64,000 nt of DNA from an uncultured Clostridia bacterium (GCA_944349905.1 CALVNR010000003.1:69974-133973); one strand, 5' to 3'. Positions 3,919-64,000 are shown, counted from the stretch's first letter. The notes: generated by a model from the sequence alone, not told the origin. A program made the numbers and translations.

Positions 3919-4036
3919 TTCCAGCAGTGTTCTATCTTCCCGGGCCGTCGCCAGCCAAGTATTTTCAACGATGAAAAGCTTAACTTCTGTGTTCGGTATG
4001 TGTACAGGTGGATCCTTTTCTCTATCGCCACTGGAA
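3919..4036 (-). rRNA. rrf: 5S ribosomal RNA
   Basis: The reverse complement reads CCAGTGGCGATAGAGAAAAGGATCCACCTGTACACATACCGAACACAGAAGTTAAGC...GGCCCGGGAAGATAGAACACTGCTGGAAT, which contains the conserved 5S core motifs. Ends are approximate (+/-3 nt). Confidence 0.9.
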
Positions 4037-4145
4037 ATGGTATAATTACAAGTTCTACTTGGAATTACTAAATTTACTTCTTTATTATACTTAATATAAA
4101 TCCTTTTGTCAAGAATTTTAGTATAATAATCAGGAATTTATAAAA

Positions 4146-4165
4146 CCCTGACAACTACATAACAG
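4146..4165 (-). other. 3' half of the 23S processing stem
   Basis: ccctgacaactacataacag is complementary to 7302-7321 (20 bp with one G.U pair). Confidence 0.7.
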
Positions 4166-4183
4166 AAACTTGCTAAGTGCTCC

Positions 4184-7119
<2,936 letters not shown>

Positions 7120-51511: not shown

Positions 51512-51928
51512 ATGTTGGAATATGCTGGAAGATTTAGTAAACCAGAATTAATGATAAAACAGGGTAAATATTGGTCTATCGTTTTTAGAGAAAGCACTAC
51601 AACACTAGGCAACTGTATTTTGATTTGCAACAGAGAATGTCCTACTTTTGGAGACTTAAAACAAGAAGAAATGGATGAATTCCCTACCATGTGTTCTTGG
51701 TATGAAAATAAAATTAAAACATTATATGGCGCCGTAAAATTTAACTACATTGCGATGATGATGATAGAAGAATTTGTTCATTTTTATATAATTCCGCGTT
51801 ATAATGAACCAAAAGAAAAATATGGTATAACTTGGGTTGATCAAGATTGGCCTAAAGGATCAAAAATGGGTAAAATTGAAATTCCCGACGACATTAAACA
51901 AAAAATTATTGAAGACTTAAAAAAATAA
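51512..51928 (+). CDS. HIT-like protein with a degenerate histidine triad
   Basis: HIT-fold-like sequence, but the triad position reads VHFYIIPRY instead of HxHxHxx. Promoter TTGCAC-17-TATAAT upstream. ATG at 51512 (the track uses a TTG at 51506). Confidence 0.55.
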   Translation: MLEYAGRFSKPELMIKQGKYWSIVFRESTTTLGNCILICNRECPTFGDLKQEEMDEFPTMCSWYENKIKTLYGAVKFNYIAMMMIEEFVHFYIIPRYNEPKEKYGITWVDQDWPKGSKMGKIEIPDDIKQKIIEDLKK

Positions 51929-52083
51929 TTATTTATTACAAGTATTATACCATTTTATTAAAATCATATTAATTCAATTATTACATTTTAAACTACTAGC
52001 AAATGTTTACTACACATATTTGCAAAAAAAGAGGGAAAATCCCCTCTTTTTTATTAAATTAAATAAAATACAATTTTTTATTA

Positions 52084-53481
52084 TTACTCCAAAAAAGCTT
52101 TGTATGCCGTATATGCACTGTACAAATCTGCTTTGGAAATTAATTCATAAGGAGCATGCATTGAAATAACTGCAACGCCTATGTCAATGGTTTCTATATT
52201 CAACTCTGCAATAAATTTTGCTACTGTTCCACCACCACCTAGGTCTACTTTACCAAGTTCTGATGTTTGCCAAATAACATTATTATTTGCAAAAATTTTT
52301 CTAATTTTTTGTACCATTTCAGCAGAAGCATCATTTGATTCTCTTTTGCCACCATCGCCAGTAAATTTATTCATACATACACCACAAGACAAAATTGCTG
52401 AATTGTTTTTCTCAAATACCTCAGCAAAATTGCTATCATAAGCAGATGTAACATCTGCCGAAATACACATTGAATTTTGTCTTACTTTGCTAGCATTTTT
52501 CTTTAAAGCAATACACATTTCGTTTATTACATCTTCATAAAGTTTACTTTTAATGCCAGTAACACCATCGCTTCCAATTTCTTCTTTATCCGTCAAAATA
52601 CAAATAGTAGTATTCTTGTTTTTTGCATCAATCATCGCCATTAAAGATGAAAATGCACAAACCCTATCATCATGTCCATATGCTCCAATCAAAGACCTAT
52701 CAAAGCCAACATCCTTTGCTTTGAATGCTGGAACAGCACTTATTTCAGCACTAATAAAATCATCTTCCGTTATTTTGTAATTTTTATATAAAATTTCCAA
52801 TATATTTTCTTTGATTTTATCTTTTACTGAGGCTTCTTTCTTTGCTTTACCTCCAACAACTATATTTAGTTGTTCTGCGCTTATAACAGTATTTGCAGTT
52901 TTCATTAATTGTCCTTTACCCAAATGTGGTAGTAAGTCATTAATGTAAAATACTGGTTCTTCCTCTTTTTCACCAATTGTGAAATTTATTTTATCGCTTT
53001 TTTTTGTATAAACAACACCATGTAAAGCAAGAGGAATAGCTGTCCACTGATATTTTTTTATTCCGCCATAATAATGAGTCTTTAAAAAACACAAACCATC
53101 ACTCTCATATAGTGGAATTTGTTTAAGGTCAAGTCTTGGAGAATCCAAATGACTTACTATAATTCTAAGACCTTGTTTTTCAATATCATTCTCACCAATT
53201 TTAAAAAGGATAACCCCTTTCCCCCTATTAGACAAAAATTTCTTATCACCAGTTTTTAATTTGTCTCCAAAATTATACTCAGAAAAACCAAAACTTTTTA
53301 CTTGTTCTAGCACATAATCATTGACTTCCCTTTCTGTTTTGCATTCATCTAAAAATTTTTTGTATTTTTCAGCAAATTTATAAATTTGTTCAACCTCTTT
53401 TTCACTAGCAACTTCAAAATAATTTTTTTTGACATATCTATATTCTATCGCTTGTTGATTTTTAACACCTGTATTTTCCAT
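52084..53481 (-). CDS. M18-family aminopeptidase
   Basis: 465 aa. IIVSHLDSPRLDLK and YYGGIKKYQW are typical of the M18 aspartyl-aminopeptidase family. SD AGGAGG. Confidence 0.85.
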   Translation of the reverse strand: MENTGVKNQQAIEYRYVKKNYFEVASEKEVEQIYKFAEKYKKFLDECKTEREVNDYVLEQVKSFGFSEYNFGDKLKTGDKKFLSNRGKGVILFKIGENDIEKQGLRIIVSHLDSPRLDLKQIPLYESDGLCFLKTHYYGGIKKYQWTAIPLALHGVVYTKKSDKINFTIGEKEEEPVFYINDLLPHLGKGQLMKTANTVISAEQLNIVVGGKAKKEASVKDKIKENILEILYKNYKITEDDFISAEISAVPAFKAKDVGFDRSLIGAYGHDDRVCAFSSLMAMIDAKNKNTTICILTDKEEIGSDGVTGIKSKLYEDVINEMCIALKKNASKVRQNSMCISADVTSAYDSNFAEVFEKNNSAILSCGVCMNKFTGDGGKRESNDASAEMVQKIRKIFANNNVIWQTSELGKVDLGGGGTVAKFIAELNIETIDIGVAVISMHAPYELISKADLYSAYTAYKAFLE

Positions 53482-53645
53482 ATTTTCCTCCTTTAAATAT
53501 TATAAACAAATTTAAGAAAAATCAAAATAGCGAATGATATTTGTAACAAAAATTGATAAATTAATTAAAAACAGTTAATTTTTTTATTTTAAAATTGACA
53601 AATTTAAAATTGTATGATAGATTTTTTTGAAAAAGTGAGGTAAAT

Positions 53646-54182
53646 ATGAATATATGGAAAGATATTGATAAAAAAAGAATACAACCAGATGATTTTATTG
53701 CTTGCATTGAAATACAACAAGGAGATAAAACAAAATATGAACTTGATAAAGAAACTGGGTTTTTAATTATGGATAGGGTTCTTTATACAAGCACTCACTA
53801 CCCTATGAATTATGGATTTATTCCTTTGACATACAGTGAAGACCATGACCCTTTGGATGTTTTTGTTTTGTGCAGTCAACCATTGGAAAGACTCAGCCTC
53901 GTTAGATGTTACCCAATAGGAGTAGTAACAATGACAGATAGGGACGAAAAAGATGAAAAAATTATAGCGATACCTTTTGGCGACCCTCAATATAATTGTT
54001 ATAAAGATATTAGTGAACTACCAAAACATATTTTTGACGAATTGCAACATTTTTTAAAAGTTTATAAACAACTTGAAAATAAAGTAGTGAAAGTAGAAGC
54101 TTTGGCAGGACATAAAGAAGCAAGTTTAATTATTAAAACTTGCTTAGATAATTACAATAAAATATTTAATAAAAATAATTAA
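53646..54182 (+). CDS. ppa: Inorganic pyrophosphatase (family I)
   Basis: 178 aa with the KYELDKETG...DRVLYTSTHYPMNYGFIP.T...DHDPLDVFVL signature. SD GAGG. Confidence 0.95.
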   Translation: MNIWKDIDKKRIQPDDFIACIEIQQGDKTKYELDKETGFLIMDRVLYTSTHYPMNYGFIPLTYSEDHDPLDVFVLCSQPLERLSLVRCYPIGVVTMTDRDEKDEKIIAIPFGDPQYNCYKDISELPKHIFDELQHFLKVYKQLENKVVKVEALAGHKEASLIIKTCLDNYNKIFNKNN

Positions 54183-54197
54183 TACATTTGAAAGAAA

Positions 54198-54232
54198 TAA
54201 AAAAAGCTCAATTTTAGAATTGAGCTTTTTTA
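54198..54232. terminator. Bidirectional intrinsic terminator
   Basis: 10-bp stem aagctcaatt / aattgagctt (54204-54213 / 54218-54227), flanked by an A-run and a T-run. Confidence 0.8.
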
Positions 54233-55075
54233 AACGTTTTCTATTTCATCTGATATATCAATAACTTCTTTGTTGTATTTTGTATGTTTTTTTAGGTTTT
54301 TAATAACATTACCCTTTTTATCGTTTTTATCGCTATATTTTTTCTCTTGATTTTTATAATGCGGTTTTTCTTCTTTAACTACCAATCTTTGAATCAATGG
54401 ATTCAAAATTTTTCTTTGCTTTGCATTATTAATATGAAAATAAATTTCTTTTTCTCTTTTTTTAAAAATTCTTTCTACTTCCTTATAATCTATTTCCTTA
54501 ACATCTAAAATAGCATGTTTAGCTTCATGTTTTACTCTTGGCAAATTTCTTGCTTTACTTGCTGCCTCAGATGCTGTTAAAGCTTTCACTACAAAAACGC
54601 CTGGATAATATCTATTTCTTCCTACATGTCCACATTTAACAACAACTTTAAAATTTTTTACTTTTATAGAATCTTGCATGGTAACTACTGATGTTTTAAA
54701 ATAATGAAACAATGTAGACATTTGTGAATGATATTTTTCTTTTATGTATTTACTACTTTTCTTGTAAACTGACCTTAATGCAGAAAATTTGGTTTTTGCA
54801 GTGTGAGGAATTTCTTTTTTATTAACAATATTAAAACAAATCCTGCTAAAATCTTGGAAATTAATTATAAATTTTGCATCGTATATACAAGTCAACTCTG
54901 GCATTTGTTCTTCTTTATTATAAAAATTATTTAAAATTTTAATCACAAGTTCTTTATTTCCTGGTGCTATTTTGTCTACTTCTTTTGCGATTGTTTCCTT
55001 ATCATAGTATATAGGCCTGCCTTTAATACTATTTAATTTAGAAAAAAATGTAGCCATAACTACAAGCATCTTCAT
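54230..55075 (-). CDS. Hypothetical basic protein
   Basis: 281-aa ORF with SD AAAGGGAA. No family recognised. Confidence 0.55.
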   Translation of the reverse strand: MKMLVVMATFFSKLNSIKGRPIYYDKETIAKEVDKIAPGNKELVIKILNNFYNKEEQMPELTCIYDAKFIINFQDFSRICFNIVNKKEIPHTAKTKFSALRSVYKKSSKYIKEKYHSQMSTLFHYFKTSVVTMQDSIKVKNFKVVVKCGHVGRNRYYPGVFVVKALTASEAASKARNLPRVKHEAKHAILDVKEIDYKEVERIFKKREKEIYFHINNAKQRKILNPLIQRLVVKEEKPHYKNQEKKYSDKNDKKGNVIKNLKKHTKYNKEVIDISDEIENV

Positions 55076-55211
55076 TAAGTTCCCTTTCTTTTGTCAAATC
55101 GTAAGCAAGTTTACAAACGGGTTGTAAATATTTTTCATAAAATCTGCTACCCGTAACCTTTAAATTTAAACTTTTGTAATATCTATCTAATTTATCTAAA
55201 ATTGTATCCAT
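55038..55211 (-). CDS. Possible 57-aa small ORF overlapping the start of the 281-aa gene
   Basis: ATG at 55211 (MDTILDKLDRYYKSLNLKVTGSRFYEKYLQPVCKLAYDL...), stop at 55038-55040. It is below the track length cut-off and I did not identify an SD. Confidence 0.25.
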   Translation of the reverse strand: MDTILDKLDRYYKSLNLKVTGSRFYEKYLQPVCKLAYDLTKERELNEDACSYGYIFF

Positions 55212-55304
55212 GTTTAAATTATAAAATATATTTTTTACTTAGTCAATAGTTAAATTTTTATAAATTAAAAAATTTATAACTATTTTTACAATACGCTTAT
55301 AGTA

Positions 55305-55332
55305 TTGATTTTTTTAATAATTTTGTTATAAT
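55305..55332 (+). promoter_or_regulatory. Promoter with leaderless geometry for the U32 peptidase gene
   Basis: TTGATT (55305-55310), 16 nt, TGtTATAAT (-10 at 55327-55332), then 7 nt and the ATG at 55340. No SD. Confidence 0.5.
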
Positions 55333-55339
55333 TATATTT

Positions 55340-57535
55340 ATGAATAATAACAAAAAACAAAATGTAGAAATTCTTGCACCAGCTGGTAATTTTGAAAGTT
55401 TAAAAGTTGCAATAGACAATGGAGCAAATGCTGTTTATCTTGGACTTGAAGACTTTAACGCAAGAAACAATATTGAAAATTTTAATACGGAAAATTTGCA
55501 TGAAGTCGTTGATTATGCACATTTTTTTAACGTTAAAATTTACATAACCATAAATGTTTTAATTAAAGATGATGAATTTGAAAAAATTATTGATATTGTA
55601 AAAAAATCATTGCAAGCAAATGTAGATGCTTTTATTGTTCAAGATATTGGGCTTGCATATTATTTGAAGCAAAAATTTCCAAACATTGAATTGCATGCAA
55701 GCACACAGATGGGTTTTAATAATTTAGAAGGTGTTTTATTTGCTAAAAAACTTGGTTTCAAACGTGTTGTGCTGGCAAGAGAAACTCCCCTTGCAGAAGT
55801 TAAACGAATAAAAGAAAATTGCGACATAGAACTTGAATATTTTATTCAAGGTGCTTTGTGTGTGGCTTATTCTGGGAATTGCTATTTATGTTCACTCCTT
55901 GCAAACAGCAGTGGTAATAGAGGGCAATGCAAACAATTTTGTCGTCTCGCTTATTCAATGAAAAATGGAAATATAAGCAAAGATGGTTACCTTTTAAGCA
56001 CCAAAGACTTTTGCATGATACCCAAGCTTAAAGATTTGATTGATGCTGGAATTTACAGTTTGAAAATTGAAGGTAGAGCAAGAAGACCTGCATATGTAGC
56101 ACAGTCTGTCAAAACTTACAGAAAAATAATTGATAATAATTTTAATTTCTCAGATGAAGATATTCTAGATTTAAAAAAGGTTTTTAACCGTGGTAATTTT
56201 GCATGTGGCTATTTTGATAATAACAATATAATATACAGCAAATGTCAAAACCATATTGGTGTTGAAATTGGAAAAGTAATTGATTTTGTACAAGGAAAAA
56301 AATTTAATGAAGTATTTATCAAATCAAATTATAAAATAAAAAAAGGTGATGTAATAAAATTTTTCAAAAATGATAAAGAAATTGGAATTGTAGCAGTAAA
56401 CGACTCAAACGAAAAAAAATGTGGGATTTATAGAATAACAACTACAAATCATATTGAAAATAATTCTATTGCAAGATTGATTGTTGATAGTGATAAAGAA
56501 AAGGAACTCTTGACAAAACATAAACAAATTTATGTTGACATTGATTTTTATGCCAAACAAAACCAAAAAGCAAAGTTAATTTTAAAAACACAAAACATCA
56601 ATGTTGAGATAGAAAGCGATTTTTTTGTAGAAAAAGCAAAATCTTCTCCTATAAATGAAACTGATTGTAAAACTCAATTTTCAAAACTTGGAAAACTTTT
56701 CTCTCTTAAAAGTTTTTTTTGTGAAATTGGGAATGTTTTTATAGCAAAATCTCAACTTAACCAACTAAGAAGACAGGCGCTTGAAAAATTAAAGCAAGAG
56801 ATGATAAATGATTATAACAATAAAAACAATATAAATAAAAAAAGAATTGAGGCAGACGACAAAATATTTATTTCAAATTCAATTTCAACAAGCAAAAAAA
56901 TGGCTCTAATAGACAAATTTGATAATTTTGAAAAATTTAAAAATAAATATGACTTATTTATATTTCAGCCAAATACGATAAACACAACAGAAATAAAAGA
57001 ATTATACAACAAATATAATCATCATAAAGTTTTTATTTCTTTTCCTATAATGGTAAATGAAAAAGAAATTGAAATTATCAAATCTTTACTTGATTATTGT
57101 AAAAATTGGGGTATCTACGCAAACAATTATTACACTTTATCTTTAACAACTCCAGATAGGATTGTGCTCGGAAGCAATATGAATGTTTTCAACTCTTATA
57201 CTATAAAATTTTATAAAAACATTGGAATTGAAAAAATTGTGTTGACAATTGAAGATATAGATAGAAATTTAATACAAAACAACGGAACATCATTGTTTTC
57301 TTTTACAAAATTTTATCCTGAATACATGTATCTTAAGCACTGTCCTTTAAAGGAACATTTTTCAAGTAAATGCGATAATTGTCTTTACAAAAATAATTTG
57401 AGTTGCAAATTGAACAACAAAGAATTTGTTTTGTTGAGACGAAAATTTTTACAATGCAACTTTGTTTTAAAAAGTAAAGCATTAATTTTAACAAAAACAC
57501 CTGAAAATATTTCTAGCATAGAAGAAATATTTTAA
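55340..57535 (+). CDS. Peptidase U32 family protein
   Basis: 731 aa. The N-terminus EILAPAGNFESLKVAIDNGANAVYLG and the ...LKIEGRARRPAYV motif are typical of the U32 family. Confidence 0.9.
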   Translation: MNNNKKQNVEILAPAGNFESLKVAIDNGANAVYLGLEDFNARNNIENFNTENLHEVVDYAHFFNVKIYITINVLIKDDEFEKIIDIVKKSLQANVDAFIVQDIGLAYYLKQKFPNIELHASTQMGFNNLEGVLFAKKLGFKRVVLARETPLAEVKRIKENCDIELEYFIQGALCVAYSGNCYLCSLLANSSGNRGQCKQFCRLAYSMKNGNISKDGYLLSTKDFCMIPKLKDLIDAGIYSLKIEGRARRPAYVAQSVKTYRKIIDNNFNFSDEDILDLKKVFNRGNFACGYFDNNNIIYSKCQNHIGVEIGKVIDFVQGKKFNEVFIKSNYKIKKGDVIKFFKNDKEIGIVAVNDSNEKKCGIYRITTTNHIENNSIARLIVDSDKEKELLTKHKQIYVDIDFYAKQNQKAKLILKTQNINVEIESDFFVEKAKSSPINETDCKTQFSKLGKLFSLKSFFCEIGNVFIAKSQLNQLRRQALEKLKQEMINDYNNKNNINKKRIEADDKIFISNSISTSKKMALIDKFDNFEKFKNKYDLFIFQPNTINTTEIKELYNKYNHHKVFISFPIMVNEKEIEIIKSLLDYCKNWGIYANNYYTLSLTTPDRIVLGSNMNVFNSYTIKFYKNIGIEKIVLTIEDIDRNLIQNNGTSLFSFTKFYPEYMYLKHCPLKEHFSSKCDNCLYKNNLSCKLNNKEFVLLRRKFLQCNFVLKSKALILTKTPENISSIEEIF

Positions 57536-57814
57536 ATTAAAAAAATAAAACAAGGATTTTTATTACATAGAACTAAAATTATAAAATTAGAAGGACAAAC
57601 GAACAGAAGTGCAAATGCCATTAATCAAGCACTAACACAAACTAAAAAAGAAAAACAAGTTGATGATAAAAACAAACAAAAAACAAGACAAGAACTAGAA
57701 GATGAAATTTTACATCTTCAACAACTTATTAAAGAGCAAGAAGAACAAGATCGCATAGAACAAGAACTAGAAGAAAAGCGTAAACAGAAAAAACGACAAC
57801 AAGCAGAAATGTAA
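57536..57814 (+). pseudogene. Possible remnant of a gene 3' end (coiled-coil tail with no start codon)
   Basis: Open frame ...KLEGQTNRSANAINQALTQTKKEKQ...EEKRKQKKRQQAEM* with no ATG, GTG or TTG start. It is followed by its own terminator at 57974-58021. Confidence 0.25.
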
Positions 57815-57973
57815 AAATTTCGCAAAAAAACACTTTATAATAAGATATAATATTACACGATAATAAACGGCATTTTGCAAAAATTTGGAACAAATTCGTG
57901 ACAAATTCGTAGACATTGCCAATTTTTTAATGTTTTTAATAAAAAAATAAACAATTTTAATTGAAAAAATTTG

Positions 57974-58021
57974 AACCCACAAGTTAAGATTTAAGTCTTG
58001 ATTTGTGGGTTATTTTTTTTT
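57974..58021 (+). terminator. Intrinsic terminator (plus strand)
   Basis: Stem aacccacaa / ttgtgggtt (57974-57982 / 58003-58011) followed by a 9-nt T-run. Confidence 0.7.
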
Positions 58022-58061
58022 GCATAAATAAGAACCTGCGTTGCAGAACCTTGCGTAAACT

Positions 58062-58093
58062 AAAAAAAATCTAGCGAAACCTAAAATCGCTAG
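58062..58093 (-). terminator. Intrinsic terminator (minus strand) downstream of the tRNA fragment
   Basis: Stem ctagcga / tcgctag (58071-58077 / 58087-58093), followed on the minus strand by an 8-nt U-run (58069-58062). Confidence 0.7.
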
Positions 58094-58117
58094 AAGTCCC
58101 TTTAGTAATGGAATTTA

Positions 58118-58162
58118 TGGTGCTCCACGAGGGATTCTAACCCCCAACCCTTGGTTCCGAAG
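58118..58162 (-). pseudogene. 3' half of a tRNA-Arg(UCG)-like gene (anticodon loop to CCA); the 5' half is absent
   Basis: Minus strand reads CUUCGGA ACCAA GGGUU GGGGG UUAGAAU CCCUC GUGGAGC A CCA. These are the anticodon loop (U33, anticodon UCG, G37), variable loop, T-arm, acceptor 3' strand, discriminator and CCA. Sequence 5' of position 32 cannot pair with the anticodon-stem or acceptor strands. The T-loop has A at the normally invariant C56. Confidence 0.6.
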
Positions 58163-58320
58163 GGGCGACCTGAAAATGCCAAGAGTTCGACTTTTCGTAT
58201 CATATTTTACCATAAAATATCATATCAAAAATCTCTCAATCCCTTTATTTTTCAGCATTTTCGCCACTTCTTCTTATCAAACAATACTATACAATACTTC
58301 CACCTAAAAATACAACACAA

Positions 58321-58369
58321 ACACCCCGTTTGCAAAAGTCTTGCATTTTTCTTGCAAAAATTTGTAACA
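58321..58369 (+). repeat. 49-bp direct repeat, copy A (degenerate promoter/operator-like)
   Basis: acaccccgtttgcaaaagtcttgcatttttcttgcaaaaatttgtaaca matches copy B at 44 of 49 positions. It contains three TTGCA(A/T) elements. Confidence 0.85.
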
Positions 58370-58456
58370 TTTTAAGCTATGTTAATTTGTTTTTTAAATG
58401 AGGTTACGCATAATAATAAATATTTTTATTAAAATTTATTCTTTAAAATATCTTGT

Positions 58457-59230
58457 TTATGTTTTTTTTGTTATTGTCAATATATGCGTTGATAATCCAA
58501 GCATTTCTTTTTTTTCACATACTCTTAATTGCCAATCTTTTATAATTTCAAATTCCTCCTCATCAAGTTGGTTTGAATGTTCCTTTAAAATTTCAAATAA
58601 CCCATCAGTAGAAATATCTTTAATATGTTTTAATCCTGCGTCTTTAACATATTTTTTAAATTCATCAATAAAATATGATTTATAAATATCTTCAGAAAAA
58701 GATTTAAAATAACCTATATCGTTAAATAAATTTTTACATTTTTTTAGATTTTTATTTATAAGTCCATATCTAATTATAATTGCTGTAGGTGAAAGAAAGG
58801 TAAATAAAACAAATCCTCCTTTTTTACAAATTCTAACACTTTCACTTATGGCTTTCTTAATATCTTTTTCTTCAAATAAATGAGAGAGAACTCCATTTAC
58901 AAACACAATATCGAAACTTTCATTTTTAATTGATTTTAAGTTTATTATATCAGCTATAACTGTTTTTATATTTTGTTTCTTTGGAAAAGACGAAAAATAT
59001 TTGCCAAATATGTCCACTGCGGTGATTTCAATGTTTCTGTTTGATAATTCTGGAGTAAAAGCTTTAATACCTGAACCAATTTCGATAACTTTATCTCCTT
59101 CTTTTATATATTTGTTCAAATATAAACATGTTATATATCTTTCAAGTTTTGCATAATTTGAAGGATTTTCAAATTTTTCATCGTTTCTATTTTTATAAAA
59201 ATTATAAAGATTATCAACTCTTTTGTTCAT
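58457..59230 (-). CDS. Class I SAM-dependent methyltransferase
   Basis: 257 aa. Motif I is KVIEIGSGIKAF and the post-I acidic residue is in ITAVDI. FDIVFVNGVLSHL is also present. Substrate unknown. Confidence 0.8.
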   Translation of the reverse strand: MNKRVDNLYNFYKNRNDEKFENPSNYAKLERYITCLYLNKYIKEGDKVIEIGSGIKAFTPELSNRNIEITAVDIFGKYFSSFPKKQNIKTVIADIINLKSIKNESFDIVFVNGVLSHLFEEKDIKKAISESVRICKKGGFVLFTFLSPTAIIIRYGLINKNLKKCKNLFNDIGYFKSFSEDIYKSYFIDEFKKYVKDAGLKHIKDISTDGLFEILKEHSNQLDEEEFEIIKDWQLRVCEKKEMLGLSTHILTITKKT

Positions 59231-59362
59231 AACTTTTCTCCTATCAATCCGATTATATCACACTATATTAAATAATTTACAAAATTTTCATTATTTTTTA
59301 ATATTGTGTCAATTTTTTTATTATAAAAATAGATATACAAAAATTACAAAATAAAATACAAA

Positions 59363-59411
59363 ACACCCCATTTGCAAAAATCTTGCATTTTTCTTGTAAA
59401 AATTTATAATA
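59363..59411 (+). repeat. 49-bp direct repeat, copy B; doubles as the likely promoter of the terS operon
   Basis: acaccccatttgcaaaaatcttgcatttttcttgtaaaaatttataata. It contains TTGCAT (59383-59388), 16 nt, TATAAT (59405-59410). Confidence 0.8.
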
Positions 59412-59569
59412 ACAACTAGAATTGTTAAAGATTTTATATTTACAAATTTTTATTGTGGAAATTGGTTGTCAAAAAAATTTTCTATAATAAATGTTGAAAT
59501 ATATGACACTAAATCTTGAATATTGAAAATATATATGTTAAAGTAATTTTAGATTAATAAACTTACGTT

Positions 59570-59609
59570 TAGGTTGTTCACTTTTTGTGGTGGGCAACCT
59601 ATTTGTTTG
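59570..59609 (+). promoter_or_regulatory. Stem-loop plus T-rich tract just upstream of the terS RBS (possible attenuator)
   Basis: taggttg (59570-59576) pairs with caaccta (59595-59601) across an 18-nt loop, followed by tttgtttg. Confidence 0.3.
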
Positions 59610-59620
59610 AAAGGAAAAAT

Positions 59621-60046
59621 ATGGATAAATTTGAAAAGGAAATGTTAGAGAATAATAGAAAGGCTGCGATTGCAACACAAGAAAACAACGATAAGATTTT
59701 AACCATTCCAAGTTATTTAACAAAGGAAGAAAAGGTTGCATATAGCGAGATTGTGCAAACCTTAAAAGAAAGCATCCATTACAGGCTATCTTCAACTGAT
59801 GCTGAACTAATTTGGCAATATTGTCAGATCAAAATTATGCGTGATAGAGCTTGGCGAGAATACAACAAAAACCCAGATAGATATATTCGTATAGTTACAG
59901 GAATTTGTAGTGATGGAAAAACGCCAAAAGTTATGGTTAAAGAAAATGAACACTATAAAACATTAATAGATTGCAATAAACAACTCGAAAAGATTTTAAA
60001 AGATTTGAGATTGACACCAGAAGCAAGAAAGAAAAGATATTTTTAG
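59621..60046 (+). CDS. terS: Phage terminase small subunit, P27 family
   Basis: 141 aa from the ATG at 59621 (SD AAAGGA). The pattern IPSYLTKEEKVAYSEIVQTL...DAELIWQYCQ...LKDLRLTPEARKK matches the P27-family layout. Confidence 0.75.
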   Translation: MDKFEKEMLENNRKAAIATQENNDKILTIPSYLTKEEKVAYSEIVQTLKESIHYRLSSTDAELIWQYCQIKIMRDRAWREYNKNPDRYIRIVTGICSDGKTPKVMVKENEHYKTLIDCNKQLEKILKDLRLTPEARKKRYF

Positions 60047-60098
60047 TTGTCACTATGCAAAACAAAAGATTTGTGCTATAATTAAATAGAGGTTAAAA

Positions 60099-60488
60099 AT
60101 GTATACAGGTTATTTTGGAAAAATGAAAAGTTATCCTAAGGATAAAGAATATAGATATGTTTCTATTGCAAGGTTTAATAAATTTTGGTCAGGAGAAGAA
60201 TATAAAAAGTTGACACCACCTGCAAGTATTATAAAAATTGAAGATAAAGAACTTTATACAAAGTTGTATTATGAGCAAGTATTAAACAACTTAAATCCGC
60301 AAGAAGTGTATAATGAACTTGGAGATAATGCTGTTTTGTTATGTTATGAAAAATATGCAGATATTGAACAAGGAAAAACATTTTGTCATAGGCATATGGT
60401 GGCTAAATGGCTAGAAGAAAAACTAGGAGTTGAGGTAAAAGAATTAGAAAATGAGAATAAAGACAATAGTCAACAATTACATTTCTAA
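60099..60488 (+). CDS. DUF488-like small protein (phage-associated type)
   Basis: 129 aa. MYTGYFGK...YVSIAR...VLLCYEK......FCHRHMVAKWLEEKLGVEVKEL resembles the DUF488 LLC.E...CHR signature. SD GAGG. Confidence 0.5.
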   Translation: MYTGYFGKMKSYPKDKEYRYVSIARFNKFWSGEEYKKLTPPASIIKIEDKELYTKLYYEQVLNNLNPQEVYNELGDNAVLLCYEKYADIEQGKTFCHRHMVAKWLEEKLGVEVKELENENKDNSQQLHF

Positions 60489-61668
60489 CTTTATTAATGA
60501 AAATAAATTTAGAAATATTTATATCTATGGGTCTAAGTACTTACAGATAGAAAAATTAATAAGTAAATCAACATCGTCATCAATAATTGGTGACGATGTT
60601 GATTTTTGTAACACATTACTTGCAGAATATTATTTAAATAGGGATAAAAAAATTATTCTTCCAGACCATGTGTGTAAATCTTTACGAATAGAAAATCAAG
60701 ATGTTTATTCAAGTGTAGAGAAAGTTGCATTAGCAATTATTGGAAATAAAATCCTTCATAAAGAAAGCAATTATCACTCCACAAGGTTAAATGATAATAT
60801 AATTAAAAATTTAGATTTATTGGTTAAACAAATAGTTCAAAAAGTTGAAGGAGAAGACATAAAATTAACAGATTTTAAGCAAATGAGTTTAAAAGATTTT
60901 ACAAAATTGCCAGAAAAAGAAGATTTGTTGATAATTGACAATAGAGATTCTAACAATTTAAAGAAAAGTTTGCATGAACAATTACTTGATATTGGTACAA
61001 GTTTCATAATTTTATCTAAAAAGGATATCAATAATTTGGGGGAATATAAAGTATTGCATAGTAAAACTATTAAGATATTCTCAAATTGCATAGAAAACAA
61101 TATGTTAATATCCAAACAAAACAACAAAACAGATAAACAATTGTCTTTTGATACTATTGAAAATGATAATATTGAACATGTTGCCTTAAAGCAATTAAAT
61201 CATACTCAGTTCAATTCTTTAAGACAAAAATATTTAAGCAAACAAATTCACTTTACCGGCACTCCTAAAGTTTGTTATGGATTATTTAGCGGAAACAAAA
61301 TATTTGGAGTCTTTGGTTTAACAAATGATTATAATCATAAACCACCAAAGGATATTGAGCATCCGTCAGTTTATTTGATGACAGATTTTTGTGTTAAAAG
61401 TTCAATAAATAAGTTAAGCAAACTTGTTTTATATTGTATTTTAAGTAAAGATGTGAAAATGTTGGCTGAAAGATTAGTTAGCAAAGAAGTTAAAAGTATA
61501 TTTACTAATGTATTTACGAAACATAAAAGTTCTATAAAATATAGAGGTTTGTTTGATTTACATACTAGAAAAGAATTAGAAGATAAATCATTTAACTTAA
61601 CATATATTTCAAAATTTGGTAATTGGACATTAAAGGAGGCTGTAAGCTTATGGAAACAGAAATTATAA
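60451..61668 (+). CDS. Hypothetical 405-aa protein (C-terminal half faintly acyltransferase/Mom-like)
   Basis: The ORF overlaps both neighbours, by 38 nt upstream and 19 nt downstream. The C-terminal YGLFSGNKIFGVFGLTN...VYLMTDFCV...KLSKLVLYCIL pattern is only suggestive. No family recognised. Confidence 0.6.
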   Translation: MRIKTIVNNYISNFINENKFRNIYIYGSKYLQIEKLISKSTSSSIIGDDVDFCNTLLAEYYLNRDKKIILPDHVCKSLRIENQDVYSSVEKVALAIIGNKILHKESNYHSTRLNDNIIKNLDLLVKQIVQKVEGEDIKLTDFKQMSLKDFTKLPEKEDLLIIDNRDSNNLKKSLHEQLLDIGTSFIILSKKDINNLGEYKVLHSKTIKIFSNCIENNMLISKQNNKTDKQLSFDTIENDNIEHVALKQLNHTQFNSLRQKYLSKQIHFTGTPKVCYGLFSGNKIFGVFGLTNDYNHKPPKDIEHPSVYLMTDFCVKSSINKLSKLVLYCILSKDVKMLAERLVSKEVKSIFTNVFTKHKSSIKYRGLFDLHTRKELEDKSFNLTYISKFGNWTLKEAVSLWKQKL

Positions 61669-62522
61669 AAATAGACCCAAGAAAAATAAAACTTTTAGAA
61701 GTCAATGCAAGATATATGAAACCTGAAGAATATGAAAAGTTGGTTTCAAATATAAAGAAAGATGGTAAACTAACTTCAGTCCCATTTTGCTATTACAATG
61801 AAGATAATAAAATTGAGGTGCTTTCTGGCAACCACAGAGTAATGGCTTCTATTGAGGCCGGACTAAATGAAATACAAGTAATGCTTTGTAAAGATAAACT
61901 TTCAAAAGATAAAGCATTAGCAATTCAATTAAGCCACAATTCTATAGTAGGACAAGATGATGAGGAATTGTTAAGAAAATTATATGCAGAACTCGAAAGT
62001 TTGGAATTTAAAGAATATTCAGGACTGACAGATGATTTCATAAATTTTTGCAAGCAAACTGAAAAAGATTTTAAAATACCTAATTTACAGTATCAAGCAA
62101 TTAATTTACTATTCTTACCTAAGGAAATAAATGATATCAAAAATTGTTTAGAAGATTTAGGCGAACTGTTAAATAGCTTTACAATTCTAGCAAACATAAA
62201 GGATTATGATAACTATTTGGAAACTTCATCTTTAATTTCTAAATGTTTAAATATCAAAAATCCATCCACCACTTTTTTATCAATATTAGAACTCTCAAAA
62301 CAAAATATCAACAATTTAAAGAAAATAGCTTTTGATAATGAAAATATAGATTATACTCCTATTTCTACGATATTAGGAAGAAGTGATATAAATAAAGAAT
62401 ACGCTATTACAATAGATAATGCATTAAATAAAATGGTAGATAAAAGAATTATTAAGAAAAATGAAAAAGGGAAAGGTTTATATCTTTTAGCACAAGAATA
62501 TTTAAAAAACATTAAATCGTAG
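61650..62522 (+). CDS. ParB/Srx-fold (ParB-like nuclease) domain protein
   Basis: I prefer the start at METEIIKID (ATG 61650), preceded by AAGGAGG. The N-terminal region IDPRKIKLLEVNARYM...VLSGNHRVMASIEAGL matches the ParB N-terminal domain, and the C-terminal ~190 aa are unknown. Confidence 0.75.
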   Translation: METEIIKIDPRKIKLLEVNARYMKPEEYEKLVSNIKKDGKLTSVPFCYYNEDNKIEVLSGNHRVMASIEAGLNEIQVMLCKDKLSKDKALAIQLSHNSIVGQDDEELLRKLYAELESLEFKEYSGLTDDFINFCKQTEKDFKIPNLQYQAINLLFLPKEINDIKNCLEDLGELLNSFTILANIKDYDNYLETSSLISKCLNIKNPSTTFLSILELSKQNINNLKKIAFDNENIDYTPISTILGRSDINKEYAITIDNALNKMVDKRIIKKNEKGKGLYLLAQEYLKNIKS

Positions 62523-62610
62523 AAAAGACAAAATGCTTTTTACAAAAATAATTGCATAAATTTACTTTTTTTAGTTAACAATTTAACTAAAATCAACATA
62601 TAATAAAATG

Positions 62611-62665
62611 TTATTGCAGAAATTTTGCAATAAGGGTTGATTTATTTAAAAAATTATGATAATAT
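62611..62665 (+). promoter_or_regulatory. Operator-like palindrome plus promoter of the ATPase gene
   Basis: Inverted repeat ttattgca (62611-62618) / tgcaataa (62626-62633), then TTGATT (62637-62642), 17 nt, TAATAT (62660-62665). SD GAGGTG. Confidence 0.5.
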
Positions 62666-62683
62666 ATCAATGAGGTGTGAACT

Positions 62684-64000
62684 ATGTTAGTTAATTTCTC
62701 CGTTAAAAATTATAAATCTTATAAAGATGAAGCAAATTTTACTATGAGAAAGGCTCCTAGAATAAGAGATTTATCTTATAGCCTACTTAAAGAAAAAATA
62801 AAAAGTAAGAACTTTGAAGTTTTATCATCTTCTGTATTATATGGCCCAAACGCATCCGGCAAAAGCAATATTCTTGACGCGATGAACACATTAAAACATA
62901 TTATATTGCGAGGTTCCATTAAAAATGCTCCACCAATAGCAGGAACTCCCAATGCTCAATCAAATCTAGAGTTAATACCTTTTATTTTTGGTGCAGAAAA
63001 TCCAATAAATTTTAAAATTGAATTTATTTATAATAATTTTCACTATTTATATGAATTATCTATTAATGTAGGAGAATTTCTGTCAAGCAGTCAATTTAGA
63101 GAAATTGAATACGAAAAACTTGATATTAATTTTGTCAATATATTTGAAAGAGAGAGAAATAATCTAAAAAGACTAAGTATATTAAAAGATTATAAAGATG
63201 ATTTTATAGATGATATTGATACGGATAAAATAAAATCAATGTTTAACGAAACTTTGGTTGAAGACTCTATTTTTCTTACTAACGGTTTTAAAAATATTAG
63301 CAAAAAGTTTAGCCAAGATATAATTAAATGGTTTGAAAGTGATTTAATAATTATTCCTAAGTTAGAAGGAACATTTAGCTTACCTATATTTGAAGATAAA
63401 AAAGTTTACATTGATACTTTTGTTAATAATATTGCAAAACAGTCAGGAATTAGCGGTTCTGATATTGCTTATATTAAAGATGAAAGCTCGAAAACTGTTA
63501 CCGTTTCATTAATTCAAAAAGATAAAGACTCAAGCAAAGGCACATTCATACCTGTAAATGTTGTAGAATCCTATGGAACAGCAAGAATAATTCAGTTAAT
63601 GCCAATTATTTTAAGCGTTTTACAAAACGGCTCAGTATTAGCGGTTGACGAACTGGATGGGGCTTTACATCCAATGCTAATGATGAATATAATTAGTATT
63701 TTTCATAATGATGAAATAAATATTAACAATGCTCAATTAATTTTTAACACACACAACCCTATATATTTAAACAATTCTATATTTAGAAGGGATGAAATTA
63801 AATTTGTTGAAAAAGATTTAAATACTCATAGTAGTGTCCTTTATGCATTGTCTGACTTTGGTACAAAAGGTGAAAATTCCGTAAGAAATACAACAGATTA
63901 TATAAAAAATTATTTTATGAATAAGTATGGGGCTATTTTAGACATTGATTATACTGATATCTTCAAAGATGCTATGAGAGGTGTAATAAATGAAAAAAGC
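62684..64000 (+). CDS. ABC/SMC-like ATPase of the AAA_21 (COG1106-like) type; 3' end beyond the window
   Basis: Not in the track because it is edge-truncated. Begins MLVNFSVKNYKSYKDEANF. Walker A is GPNASGKSN, Walker B/D-loop is LAVDELDGALHP and the H-loop is IFNTHNPIYL. Also has RRDEIKFVEKD....SVLYALSDF and a YFMNKYGAI tail. Confidence 0.8.
   Translation, partial: MLVNFSVKNYKSYKDEANFTMRKAPRIRDLSYSLLKEKIKSKNFEVLSSSVLYGPNASGKSNILDAMNTLKHIILRGSIKNAPPIAGTPNAQSNLELIPFIFGAENPINFKIEFIYNNFHYLYELSINVGEFLSSSQFREIEYEKLDINFVNIFERERNNLKRLSILKDYKDDFIDDIDTDKIKSMFNETLVEDSIFLTNGFKNISKKFSQDIIKWFESDLIIIPKLEGTFSLPIFEDKKVYIDTFVNNIAKQSGISGSDIAYIKDESSKTVTVSLIQKDKDSSKGTFIPVNVVESYGTARIIQLMPIILSVLQNGSVLAVDELDGALHPMLMMNIISIFHNDEININNAQLIFNTHNPIYLNNSIFRRDEIKFVEKDLNTHSSVLYALSDFGTKGENSVRNTTDYIKNYFMNKYGAILDIDYTDIFKDAMRGVINEKS

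Follow-up and report, generated by a model that had tools for sequence, protein, structure and literature searches.

The window analysed here is a 64,000-nt stretch of genomic DNA (G+C ~29%) from an uncultured Clostridia bacterium (GCA_944349905.1 CALVNR010000003.1:69974-133973). Near its right end, between positions 59363 and 62522, four open reading frames (ORFs) lie on the same strand. The first, terS, encodes a homologue of the P27/HK97-type small terminases of phages, and it is followed by genes for a DUF488-like protein, a protein with methyltransferase-like and GNAT folds, and a ParB-fold protein. A first-pass annotation of this DNA had called the terS gene, described the three overlapping genes behind it as non-structural, and noted a tRNA-junction scar nearby; these calls were borne out by the family assignments and coordinates given below. 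Our analysis leads us to read positions 58118-64000 as the left third, proximal to the attachment site (att), of an integrative mobilizable island of ~17 kb, which would sit in the 3' half of a tRNA-Arg(TCG) gene in a gut Clostridia bacterium resembling Candidatus Caccovivens. Proteins identical to those of the TerS island are labelled Candidatus Caccovivens faecavium at NCBI. Loci used for comparison are designated by L numbers.

The terS operon and its control region

The terS gene (59621-60046, plus strand) encodes a protein of 141 aa and was assigned by means of Pfam, PHROG, NCBIfam and AlphaFold/Foldseek. The protein scores 30.6 bits against Pfam Terminase_4 (PF05119; gathering threshold 24.7, E = 4.6e-7) and matches PHROG 83, 'terminase small subunit', with E = 2e-8. 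NCBI names the identical protein HIT61883.1 a P27 family terminase. An AlphaFold model made with 13 homologues reached a pLDDT (predicted local distance difference test) of 87 and has the HK97 TerS entries 8pop and 6z6e as its top PDB matches; profile and sequence searches of the PDB with TerS gave no match. The P27-type C-terminal motif L-T/S-P-x-x-R is retained. AAAGGAAAAAT stands before the ATG start codon, and the homologues share the N-terminus MDK(F/W)EKEM.

The exact TerS protein was found on 155 contigs, and homologues at 78-99% identity gave 447 matches. The family is narrow: an exhaustive HMMER search of 1.84 billion representatives yielded only 23 related TerS clusters (50% identity). 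No terL or packaging HNH gene was found within 10 kb in any island locus; only relatives that are 28% identical have them. Sequence comparison places the window TerS in an island-specific clade. Among 119 homologues, residues 61-130 are almost invariant and residues 1-60 variable, and such near-invariance beyond the DNA-binding N-terminus suggests a conserved protein partner. The ratio of nonsynonymous to synonymous substitutions (dN/dS) between the window and L101 is ~0.055 for terS, the sole terS comparison in which dS is unsaturated. For the operon genes as a group, compared between the window and L103 or L101, dN/dS is 0.05-0.23 with dS near or beyond saturation. By these estimates the terS operon is under purifying selection, and terS strongly so.

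The leader of terS contains a terminator-like RNA hairpin (59570-59601, plus strand), which is flagged by a terminator scan; beyond it come a U-rich tract and the ribosome-binding site. The hairpin has a folding energy of -20.7 kcal/mol (z = -3.9), and none of 200 shuffled sequences folds as well. Most homologues retain all 13 of its base pairs just upstream of the ribosome-binding site; G.U pairs and two compensatory pairs occur among them, which argues that it acts as an RNA structure on this strand. A sigma-70-like promoter of the operon is predicted at 59516-59544 (plus strand) by consensus match only, with a TTGAAT box, a 17-nt spacer and the extended -10 element TGTTAAAGT. Promoter-like calls are by themselves weak evidence in the AT-rich DNA of the window, where 56 were found and 49 expected. 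The same arrangement, TTGAAT-17-(TG)TAAAGT, is found at the same distance from terS in L090, L094, L101 and L163-L167. The first-pass annotation had proposed that terS is driven by its own promoter through a ~200-nt leader with a hairpin. The hairpin and a promoter-like site are there, but the conserved promoter would give a leader of ~70 nt; one of ~200 nt would fit a second candidate, TTGCAT-16-TATAAT, at 59383-59410, which may be the promoter that the annotation had in mind.

This second candidate lies within one of two 49-nt direct repeats (family D3) that flank a cargo cassette. The left arm of the island (58163-58456), which includes the first repeat copy, is 87% conserved relative to the left end of the sister island in L012. 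The cassette carries a gene for a class I S-adenosylmethionine (SAM)-dependent methyltransferase of 257 aa (58457-59230, minus strand; Pfam Methyltransf_11, 51 bits), and the second repeat copy follows at 59361-59409 (plus strand). The two copies (58319-58367 and 59361-59409) are 92% identical and rich in TTGCA(A/T) boxes. When the cassette is subtracted, the distance from att to terS in the window is ~360 bp, near the ~340 bp of the sister islands. The cassette looks like an insertion that duplicated a promoter/operator region.

The first gene behind terS (60099-60488, plus strand) encodes 129 aa and matches phrog_2450 with E = 4e-22. Its likeness to DUF488-N3a is weak (15.7 bits, below threshold), as is its match to the PADLOC candidate PDC-M45C (E = 6e-5), and its dN/dS is 0.11. 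It overlaps by 38 nt the next gene (60451-61668, plus strand), whose 405-aa product has an N-terminal class I methyltransferase-like (Rossmann) fold and a C-terminal GNAT fold (PF22559, 137 bits; PF22555, weak). In Foldseek searches with an AlphaFold2 model (pLDDT 81), the N-terminal part matched Mcbe1, TrmM and NNMT, and the C-terminal part matched GNAT acetyltransferases. The last gene of the four encodes the ParB-fold protein (phrog_7405, 240 bits; ParB_N, weak). It is on the plus strand and begins either with TTG (61623-62522, 299 aa) or with ATG (61650-62522, 290 aa), so that it shares either 46 nt (from TTG) or 19 nt (from ATG) with the preceding gene. In the assembly collection, 283 blocks list the exact ParB-fold protein.

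The gene pair for the methyltransferase/GNAT and ParB-fold proteins is also found in phages. It is a conserved cassette of actinophages (Gordonia and Mycobacterium phages), and in Faecalibacterium phage FP_Brigit and in L181, a 53-kb phage contig, it lies directly upstream of terS-terL. As for TerS, P0138, which is 28% identical to it, is encoded in an HNH-terS-terL-portal-protease-capsid module on the viral contig L107 (31% G+C); of the TerS queries, this distant one alone gave phage loci. The island operon looks like the packaging-initiation neighbourhood of a phage minus the large terminase.

The tRNA-Arg junction and the island beyond the window

The left end of the island is marked by a 45-nt fragment at 58118-58162 (minus strand). 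L012 has an intact tRNA-Arg(tcg) gene, and the fragment agrees in every position with the 3' part of this gene, which runs from the anticodon loop to CCA. ARAGORN found no complete tRNA at this position, and the 3' end of a tmRNA as the identity of the fragment was ruled out by its identity to the tRNA-Arg(TCG) gene. The scar is an att junction. The similarity between the window and all contigs that share the block breaks exactly at this fragment. The terS block is 99.8-100% identical across more than 20 metagenome contigs. Copies of the island that share 99.8-100% identity were found at no fewer than 10 tRNA-Arg junctions, which differ from one another slightly in the tRNA 3' end and also in the flanking genes. 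Finding a near-identical island at so many junctions argues for recent spread among different hosts, and the differing junction sequences point to several host species.

To the left of the tRNA fragment lies a remnant of an Int2-type tyrosine integrase (57608-57814, plus strand), consisting of the last 68 codons and the stop. In a tblastn search with the Int2 protein of L012 it matches residues 373-440 at 97% identity, and by blastn window positions 57610-58162 are 89% identical to L012 15974-16491. The remnant bears the signature of an older tandem island at the same tRNA site that was later mostly deleted. A C-terminal integrase remnant also lies beside a tRNA 3' fragment in L090 (9096-9398), together with repeated TTTTAGACA arm-like motifs. 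The remnants in the window and in L090 suggest that islands accrete in tandem at one tRNA and are then deleted.

The window ends within the gene for an AbiLi-type AAA ATPase of abortive-infection defence (62685-64000, plus strand), whose window copy is 100% identical to that of L001. The gene for its partner AbiLii/RloB starts at 63989. With the full-length L001 copies, PADLOC gave 245 bits for AbiLi and E = 2e-10 for AbiLii. The contig L171 matches window positions 51650-64000, including the host genes of the window, at 100% and extends the sequence by 8.5 kb to window coordinate 72522. In this extension the genes are, in order, AbiLii/RloB, a YpsA/SLOG-like gene, four genes that form an apparent split type IIG restriction-modification (R-M) system, a 312-aa tyrosine recombinase, and a sigma-70 region-4-like protein. 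Genes for terL, portal or capsid just past position 64000 had been named beforehand as the finding that would make the locus an ordinary prophage; none is present in L171 up to 72522, nor downstream in L001 and L172-L180. Profile HMMs at odds with the terS call had been named as the other refuting finding, and Pfam and PHROG bear the call out. More broadly, no phage structural or lysis gene was found in any of the more than 25 related loci.

The remainder of the island was pieced together from other copies. L173 and L175 are 100% identical over the island part of the window; further on, both have a 146-aa gene, then a MobL relaxase and then an integrase fragment, so that MobL and the terS block of the window lie on one contig in both. 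In L012, from a metagenome-assembled genome labelled Christensenella, a 49-nt direct repeat of the tRNA-Arg 3' end delimits a sister island that measures 15,960 bp. On the right this island closes with a MobL relaxase (PF18555, 105 bits), followed by an integrase fragment, an excisionase with a helix-turn-helix (HTH) domain (HTH_17, 39 bits), the 440-aa integrase (Phage_integrase, 98 bits) and finally the intact tRNA-Arg(tcg). L109 matches this right half at 94-100% identity and has, next to it, the restriction genes known from L001. Assembled from L171, L173 and L175 together with L012 and L109, the complete island would be about 17 kb long. Its predicted order is tRNA 3' fragment, methyltransferase cassette, terS operon, AbiL, YpsA-like gene, swappable R-M slot, tyrosine recombinase with sigma-like gene, small accessory gene with MobL, integrase fragment, excisionase, tRNA-targeting integrase and intact tRNA-Arg.

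The defence cargo differs between otherwise identical copies (62685-64000 and L171 11035-19181, compared with L001 11062-16623), with AbiLi/AbiLii constant. In the slot that lies after the YpsA-like gene and before the 312-aa recombinase, L001 has a GmrSD_N-HNH restriction endonuclease and an EcoRI-like methylase, whereas L171, of the lineage of the window, has the split type IIG-like genes. Wherever the 312-aa recombinase occurs, a sigma-70 region-4-like protein of ~257 aa accompanies it, mid-island beside this slot (L001 16960-18914, L171 19545-20873). Where the window island has the terS operon and AbiL, L012 (1836-6704) carries genes for an HTH protein, a HipA-like kinase and a Gabija-like GajA/GajB pair.

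The terS gene is found in further islands at other tRNAs. At tRNA-Lys(CTT), L090 reads tRNA 3' fragment, terS, ParB-fold protein (180 aa), 182-aa protein, radical SAM protein, three unknown genes, a small gene, MobL, excisionase (Xis), integrase (Int) and intact tRNA-Lys. The relaxase-less islands of L166/L168, ~7.5 kb long, read terS, 75 aa, DUF4417, 121 aa, 108 aa, radical SAM, 217 aa, 279 aa, Xis and Int; L164, too, lacks the relaxase and keeps terS with Xis and Int. In L101 a tRNA-Leu(CAA) fragment precedes the terS module, with no integrase nearby, and L103-L105 have the four-gene module of the window alone, beside housekeeping genes. In L090, L166/L168, L101 and L103-L105 alike, terS is the first gene. 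Where a tRNA fragment is seen (L090, L091, L094, L101), terS lies ~340 bp from it behind the same promoter and hairpin; L163-L168 and L103 are counted with these loci as having terS in this arrangement. Across the islands, terS is always followed by ParB-fold proteins and enzymes (radical SAM, DUF4417 or methyltransferase/GNAT). When the module variants were compared, no match was found between the 182-aa protein and the 405-aa methyltransferase/GNAT protein, between the 136-aa protein of L090 and the 129-aa protein, or between the 279- and 217-aa proteins and the sigma-like protein or p160; the ParB domains were the only related proteins.

In L012 and in the islands of species genomes with the 312-aa recombinase, terS is absent, and HipA-like and Gabija genes are found instead. 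From these islands terS could be taken for shuffled cargo, a view that was revised because in the islands at tRNA-Lys and tRNA-Leu the gene keeps its place beside att. From its position across these loci, we consider the terS operon a conserved, positionally fixed hallmark of the island family and not random cargo.

Two loci have peculiarities of their own. In L169 (159-2035) a 451-aa integrase gene ends 93 bp upstream of the terS homologue, with the promoter and hairpin in the gap and no tRNA fragment, unlike all other islands. L094 (6004-9405), a locus whose translation is not exact to its query, has a second terS paralogue, 83% identical and 4 kb upstream of the main one, which is followed by DUF4417, an Ntox50 toxin-like gene and a small ORF; the two copies may represent two islands in tandem. 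Elsewhere in the window, the RNA genes are one tRNA-Ser and a 23S-5S rRNA pair on the minus strand (3919-7119; 5S at 3919-4035, 23S at 4184-7119). A scan of the 64 kb at Rfam gathering thresholds found no 16S rRNA, which thus seems unlinked from this pair. For a lysine-rich ORF of 281 aa (54230-55075, minus strand), flanked by a pyrophosphatase gene and a U32 peptidase gene, neither Pfam nor PHROG gave a match.

How the island may move

With a relaxase but no mating pore, the island corresponds at the level of its genes to an integrative and mobilizable element (IME). It has an integrase and att direct repeats (the 49-nt repeat in L012, the tRNA fragment at the window junction and the at least 10 independent junctions described above) as well as the MobL relaxase, and no type IV secretion or type IV coupling protein family appears in any island gene list. 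We are confident that it is a mobilizable tRNA island, and neither a prophage nor a phage-inducible chromosomal island (PICI).

The best explanation as a whole, which in our judgement has an even chance of being right, is that of a mobilizable island moving by both conjugation and phage packaging. According to this model, the integrase and excisionase would excise the island as a circle, which could then leave the cell in two ways: by conjugative mobilization through the MobL relaxase, using the mating pore of a helper, or by packaging into the particles of an HK97-like helper phage. In the latter case, the island TerS would bind island DNA at a site that probably lies within the ~340 bp separating att from terS, and would recruit the large terminase of the helper and probably also its HNH nuclease. 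With a terminator-like hairpin behind its promoter, the operon would stay silent until read-through is permitted by some signal, which might be antitermination of phage origin. The pair of ParB-fold protein and enzyme might act on, mark or organise the DNA for packaging or transfer, which is speculation, and the defence cargo could repay the host for carrying the island. The central step, that the island TerS really redirects phage packaging, we propose tentatively and hold to be slightly less likely than not.

Several results weigh against this explanation. The relaxase alone could account for horizontal spread, with no phage involved. An HNH nuclease and DNA of near-unit length are normally required for packaging of the HK97 type (cos), and the island has no packaging HNH gene and measures only ~17 kb. 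Although TerS passes the Pfam threshold for the P27/HK97 family, it scores 35 bits against the NCBIfam equivalog TIGR01558 (sm_term_P27), below the cut-off of 45.6, and no terL or HNH gene adjoins it. The fold match to HK97 TerS has weak E-values (0.13-0.65) at a Foldseek probability of 0.8-0.97 and a TM score of 0.45-0.66. A tblastn search of 50,697 phage records in INPHARED detected no close TerS homologue, and pattern scans of IMG/VR for the window TerS, P0077, P0126 and P0127 gave no match. These searches also yielded no helper phage with a matching terS, so the cognate helper that the first-pass annotation had envisaged did not come to light. In characterised satellites, terS usually resembles that of co-occurring phages, e.g. 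in the marine VEIMEs, integrative mobile elements encapsidated in virions (PMC9618062). Scans of the island genes with Pfam, PHROG, NCBIfam and PADLOC revealed no capsid, scaffold or Cpm/Ccm-like match, and the same scans and the precomputed Pfam labels no primase, helicase or Rep. No Stl- or cI-like or phage-sensing repressor was recognised on the island. As to the reconstruction, a YpsA-centred metagenome scan and an integrase search gave no single contig with both terS and an intact tRNA, as assemblies break in the shared backbone. The right end (Xis, Int2, intact tRNA) is thus inferred from L012, L109, L173 and L175. Not every copy is complete: in L001 and L172 the island stops behind the sigma-like gene, and L101 and L103 consist of the terS module only.

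An alternative is a pure IME whose TerS-like protein never meets a phage terminase and has been co-opted as a DNA-binding accessory, be it of the ParB-fold/modification module, in excision control or in transfer. MobL, Xis and Int are a sufficient transfer route, and the terS clade is narrow, with its 23 clusters, and absent from the phage collections searched. Moreover, ParB-fold proteins with enzymes come after terS in every case, and ParB-fold orphans on mobile elements are known as partners and activators of DNA-modifying enzymes (PMC13229309; bioRxiv 10.1101/2025.10.10.680097). Still, the islands of L164, L166 and L168 retain terS with Xis and Int but have no relaxase, and the near-invariant part of TerS beyond its DNA-binding N-terminus hints at a protein partner. 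It also counts against a pure IME that we know of no non-packaging role for a P27/HK97-type TerS. We rate this explanation as rather unlikely.

The terS operon might instead be defence cargo, in which a decoy small terminase and its ParB-fold and enzyme partners sabotage the packaging of HK97-like phages, and which need not move the island at all. The module sits among swappable defence systems (AbiL and R-M; Gabija and HipA in L012), the corresponding slot of L012 has defence genes in place of terS, the 129-aa protein weakly matches a PADLOC candidate, and stand-alone terS modules persist without an integrase. However, terS is att-proximal with its own conserved control region in islands of three other tRNAs, unlike shuffled cargo, and no PADLOC model rises above noise for the TerS, GNAT or ParB protein. 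Since interference and self-packaging coexist in known satellites, such a function would also be compatible with movement by conjugation and packaging. As an explanation in its own right we find it improbable.

The first-pass annotation had suggested a satellite of the PICI type or a heavily reduced prophage, and a tRNA island free of structural genes and with its own terS is indeed what was found. PICIs have five core components, and SatelliteFinder reports elements with four or five of them (PMC10085698). The island can be credited with three of the five: an integrase (the 312-aa tyrosine recombinase on L171 and the 440-aa tRNA-proximal integrase in L012 and L109, neither of which is inside the 64-kb window), a candidate regulation module (the excisionase-type HTH_17 protein, 39 bits, and the sigma-70 region-4-like protein in sister copies), and its own terS without tail, holin or portal genes. 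The tRNA att site and the length of ~17 kb, which is within the PICI range, also fit. We do not file the island as a PICI because neither a primase-replicase nor a capsid-morphogenesis gene was found. It has a relaxase and a second recombinase, and its mobility genes all point in one direction, as opposed to the divergent int/stl-str layout. That it is a canonical PICI like those of Staphylococcus aureus (SaPIs) is thus very unlikely. A decayed prophage, left with terS and a few early genes after losing terL and its structural genes, has in its favour the PHROG matches, the phages in which the methyltransferase/GNAT-ParB pair and terS are neighbours, and the integrase remnant just upstream, but it is largely refuted by the lack of structural, lysis and large terminase genes in L171 and every sister locus, the att-bounded block at its many tRNA-Arg junctions, the island-specific terS clade, the signs of purifying selection (low dN/dS with saturated dS), a terS-ParB order that is the reverse of the phage order, and the relaxase-based backbone.

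If movement by conjugation and packaging is extended from this island to its relatives, a new family of 'dual hitchers', small elements that integrate at tRNAs, would emerge that is very widespread in uncultured human-gut Clostridia. Its hallmark would be an island-specific TerS operon of the HK97 type, silenced by a leader terminator; its members would be packaged by helper phages, many of them would also carry MobL, and they would be both satellite and IME. We regard this broad claim as possible but doubtful. Were it true, these islands would be a vehicle that shuttles defence systems between species. If TerS is functional, there would be a satellite family in a lineage, Candidatus Caccovivens and the low-GC gut Clostridia related to it, from which no characterised one is known. 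The island is a likely route by which anti-phage defence spreads in the gut microbiome (with AbiL, R-M, Gabija and HipA being swapped), given its abundance (TerS on 155 contigs, ParB in 283 blocks), its near-identity at differing junctions and the exchange of cargo. Even on a conservative reading, a lone terS is an unsafe marker for PICIs.

Comparison with known systems

With the HNH-TerS-TerL module of HK97/P27 cos phages, the island shares the TerS family and probably its fold, including the C-terminal motif L-(T/S)-P-x-x-R, and distant relatives of its TerS lie in such a module (L107). It differs in that no terL or HNH gene is adjacent and in that its TerS, with less sequence at the C-terminus, belongs to a clade of its own that is confined to islands. 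The pair of methyltransferase-fold/GNAT and ParB-fold genes, again as overlapping ORFs, is the same two-gene cassette as gp21-gp22 of FP_Brigit and gp29-gp30 of Gordonia phage Clawz, and in Firmicutes phages this cassette adjoins terS. While the phages have the pair before terS-terL, the island has it after terS and lacks terL.

Like PICIs and SaPIs (PMC10085698), the island is small and integrated, and has an integrase, an AlpA/Xis-type HTH protein, its own terS, anti-phage cargo and no structural or lysis genes. Unlike them, it carries a relaxase and a second recombinase and lacks a primase-replicase, a capsid-morphogenesis gene and a recognisable Stl-type repressor, and its TerS is of the P27/HK97 type without a close phage counterpart. 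[quoted passage not shown] However, PICMIs and VEIMEs have been seen inside virions and have a terS like that of co-occurring phages, whereas the island is known from its genes alone and has no phage-like close homologue. It also differs from them in its host, uncultured low-GC gut Clostridia, and in having a relaxase.

The backbone resembles that of the MOB_L/MobL IMEs of Firmicutes (PMC5704250), which likewise have an integrase and excisionase at a tRNA att site, a relaxase without mating-pore genes, tandem accretion and variable cargo slots. Unlike these, the island has a conserved terS operon with its own control region at the end far from the integrase, and some sister islands have lost the relaxase and kept terS. 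We found no description in the literature of an IME or island family that joins a conserved terS to a relaxase. In a review of helper-dependent elements, terminase genes or cos/pac sites are taken as a sign of phage mobilization, and relaxase genes and origins of transfer (oriTs) as a sign of conjugation; phage satellites and conjugative hitchers are covered in separate parts of it (PMC11389934). If their TerS is functional, the islands described here would link these two main classes of helper-dependent elements.

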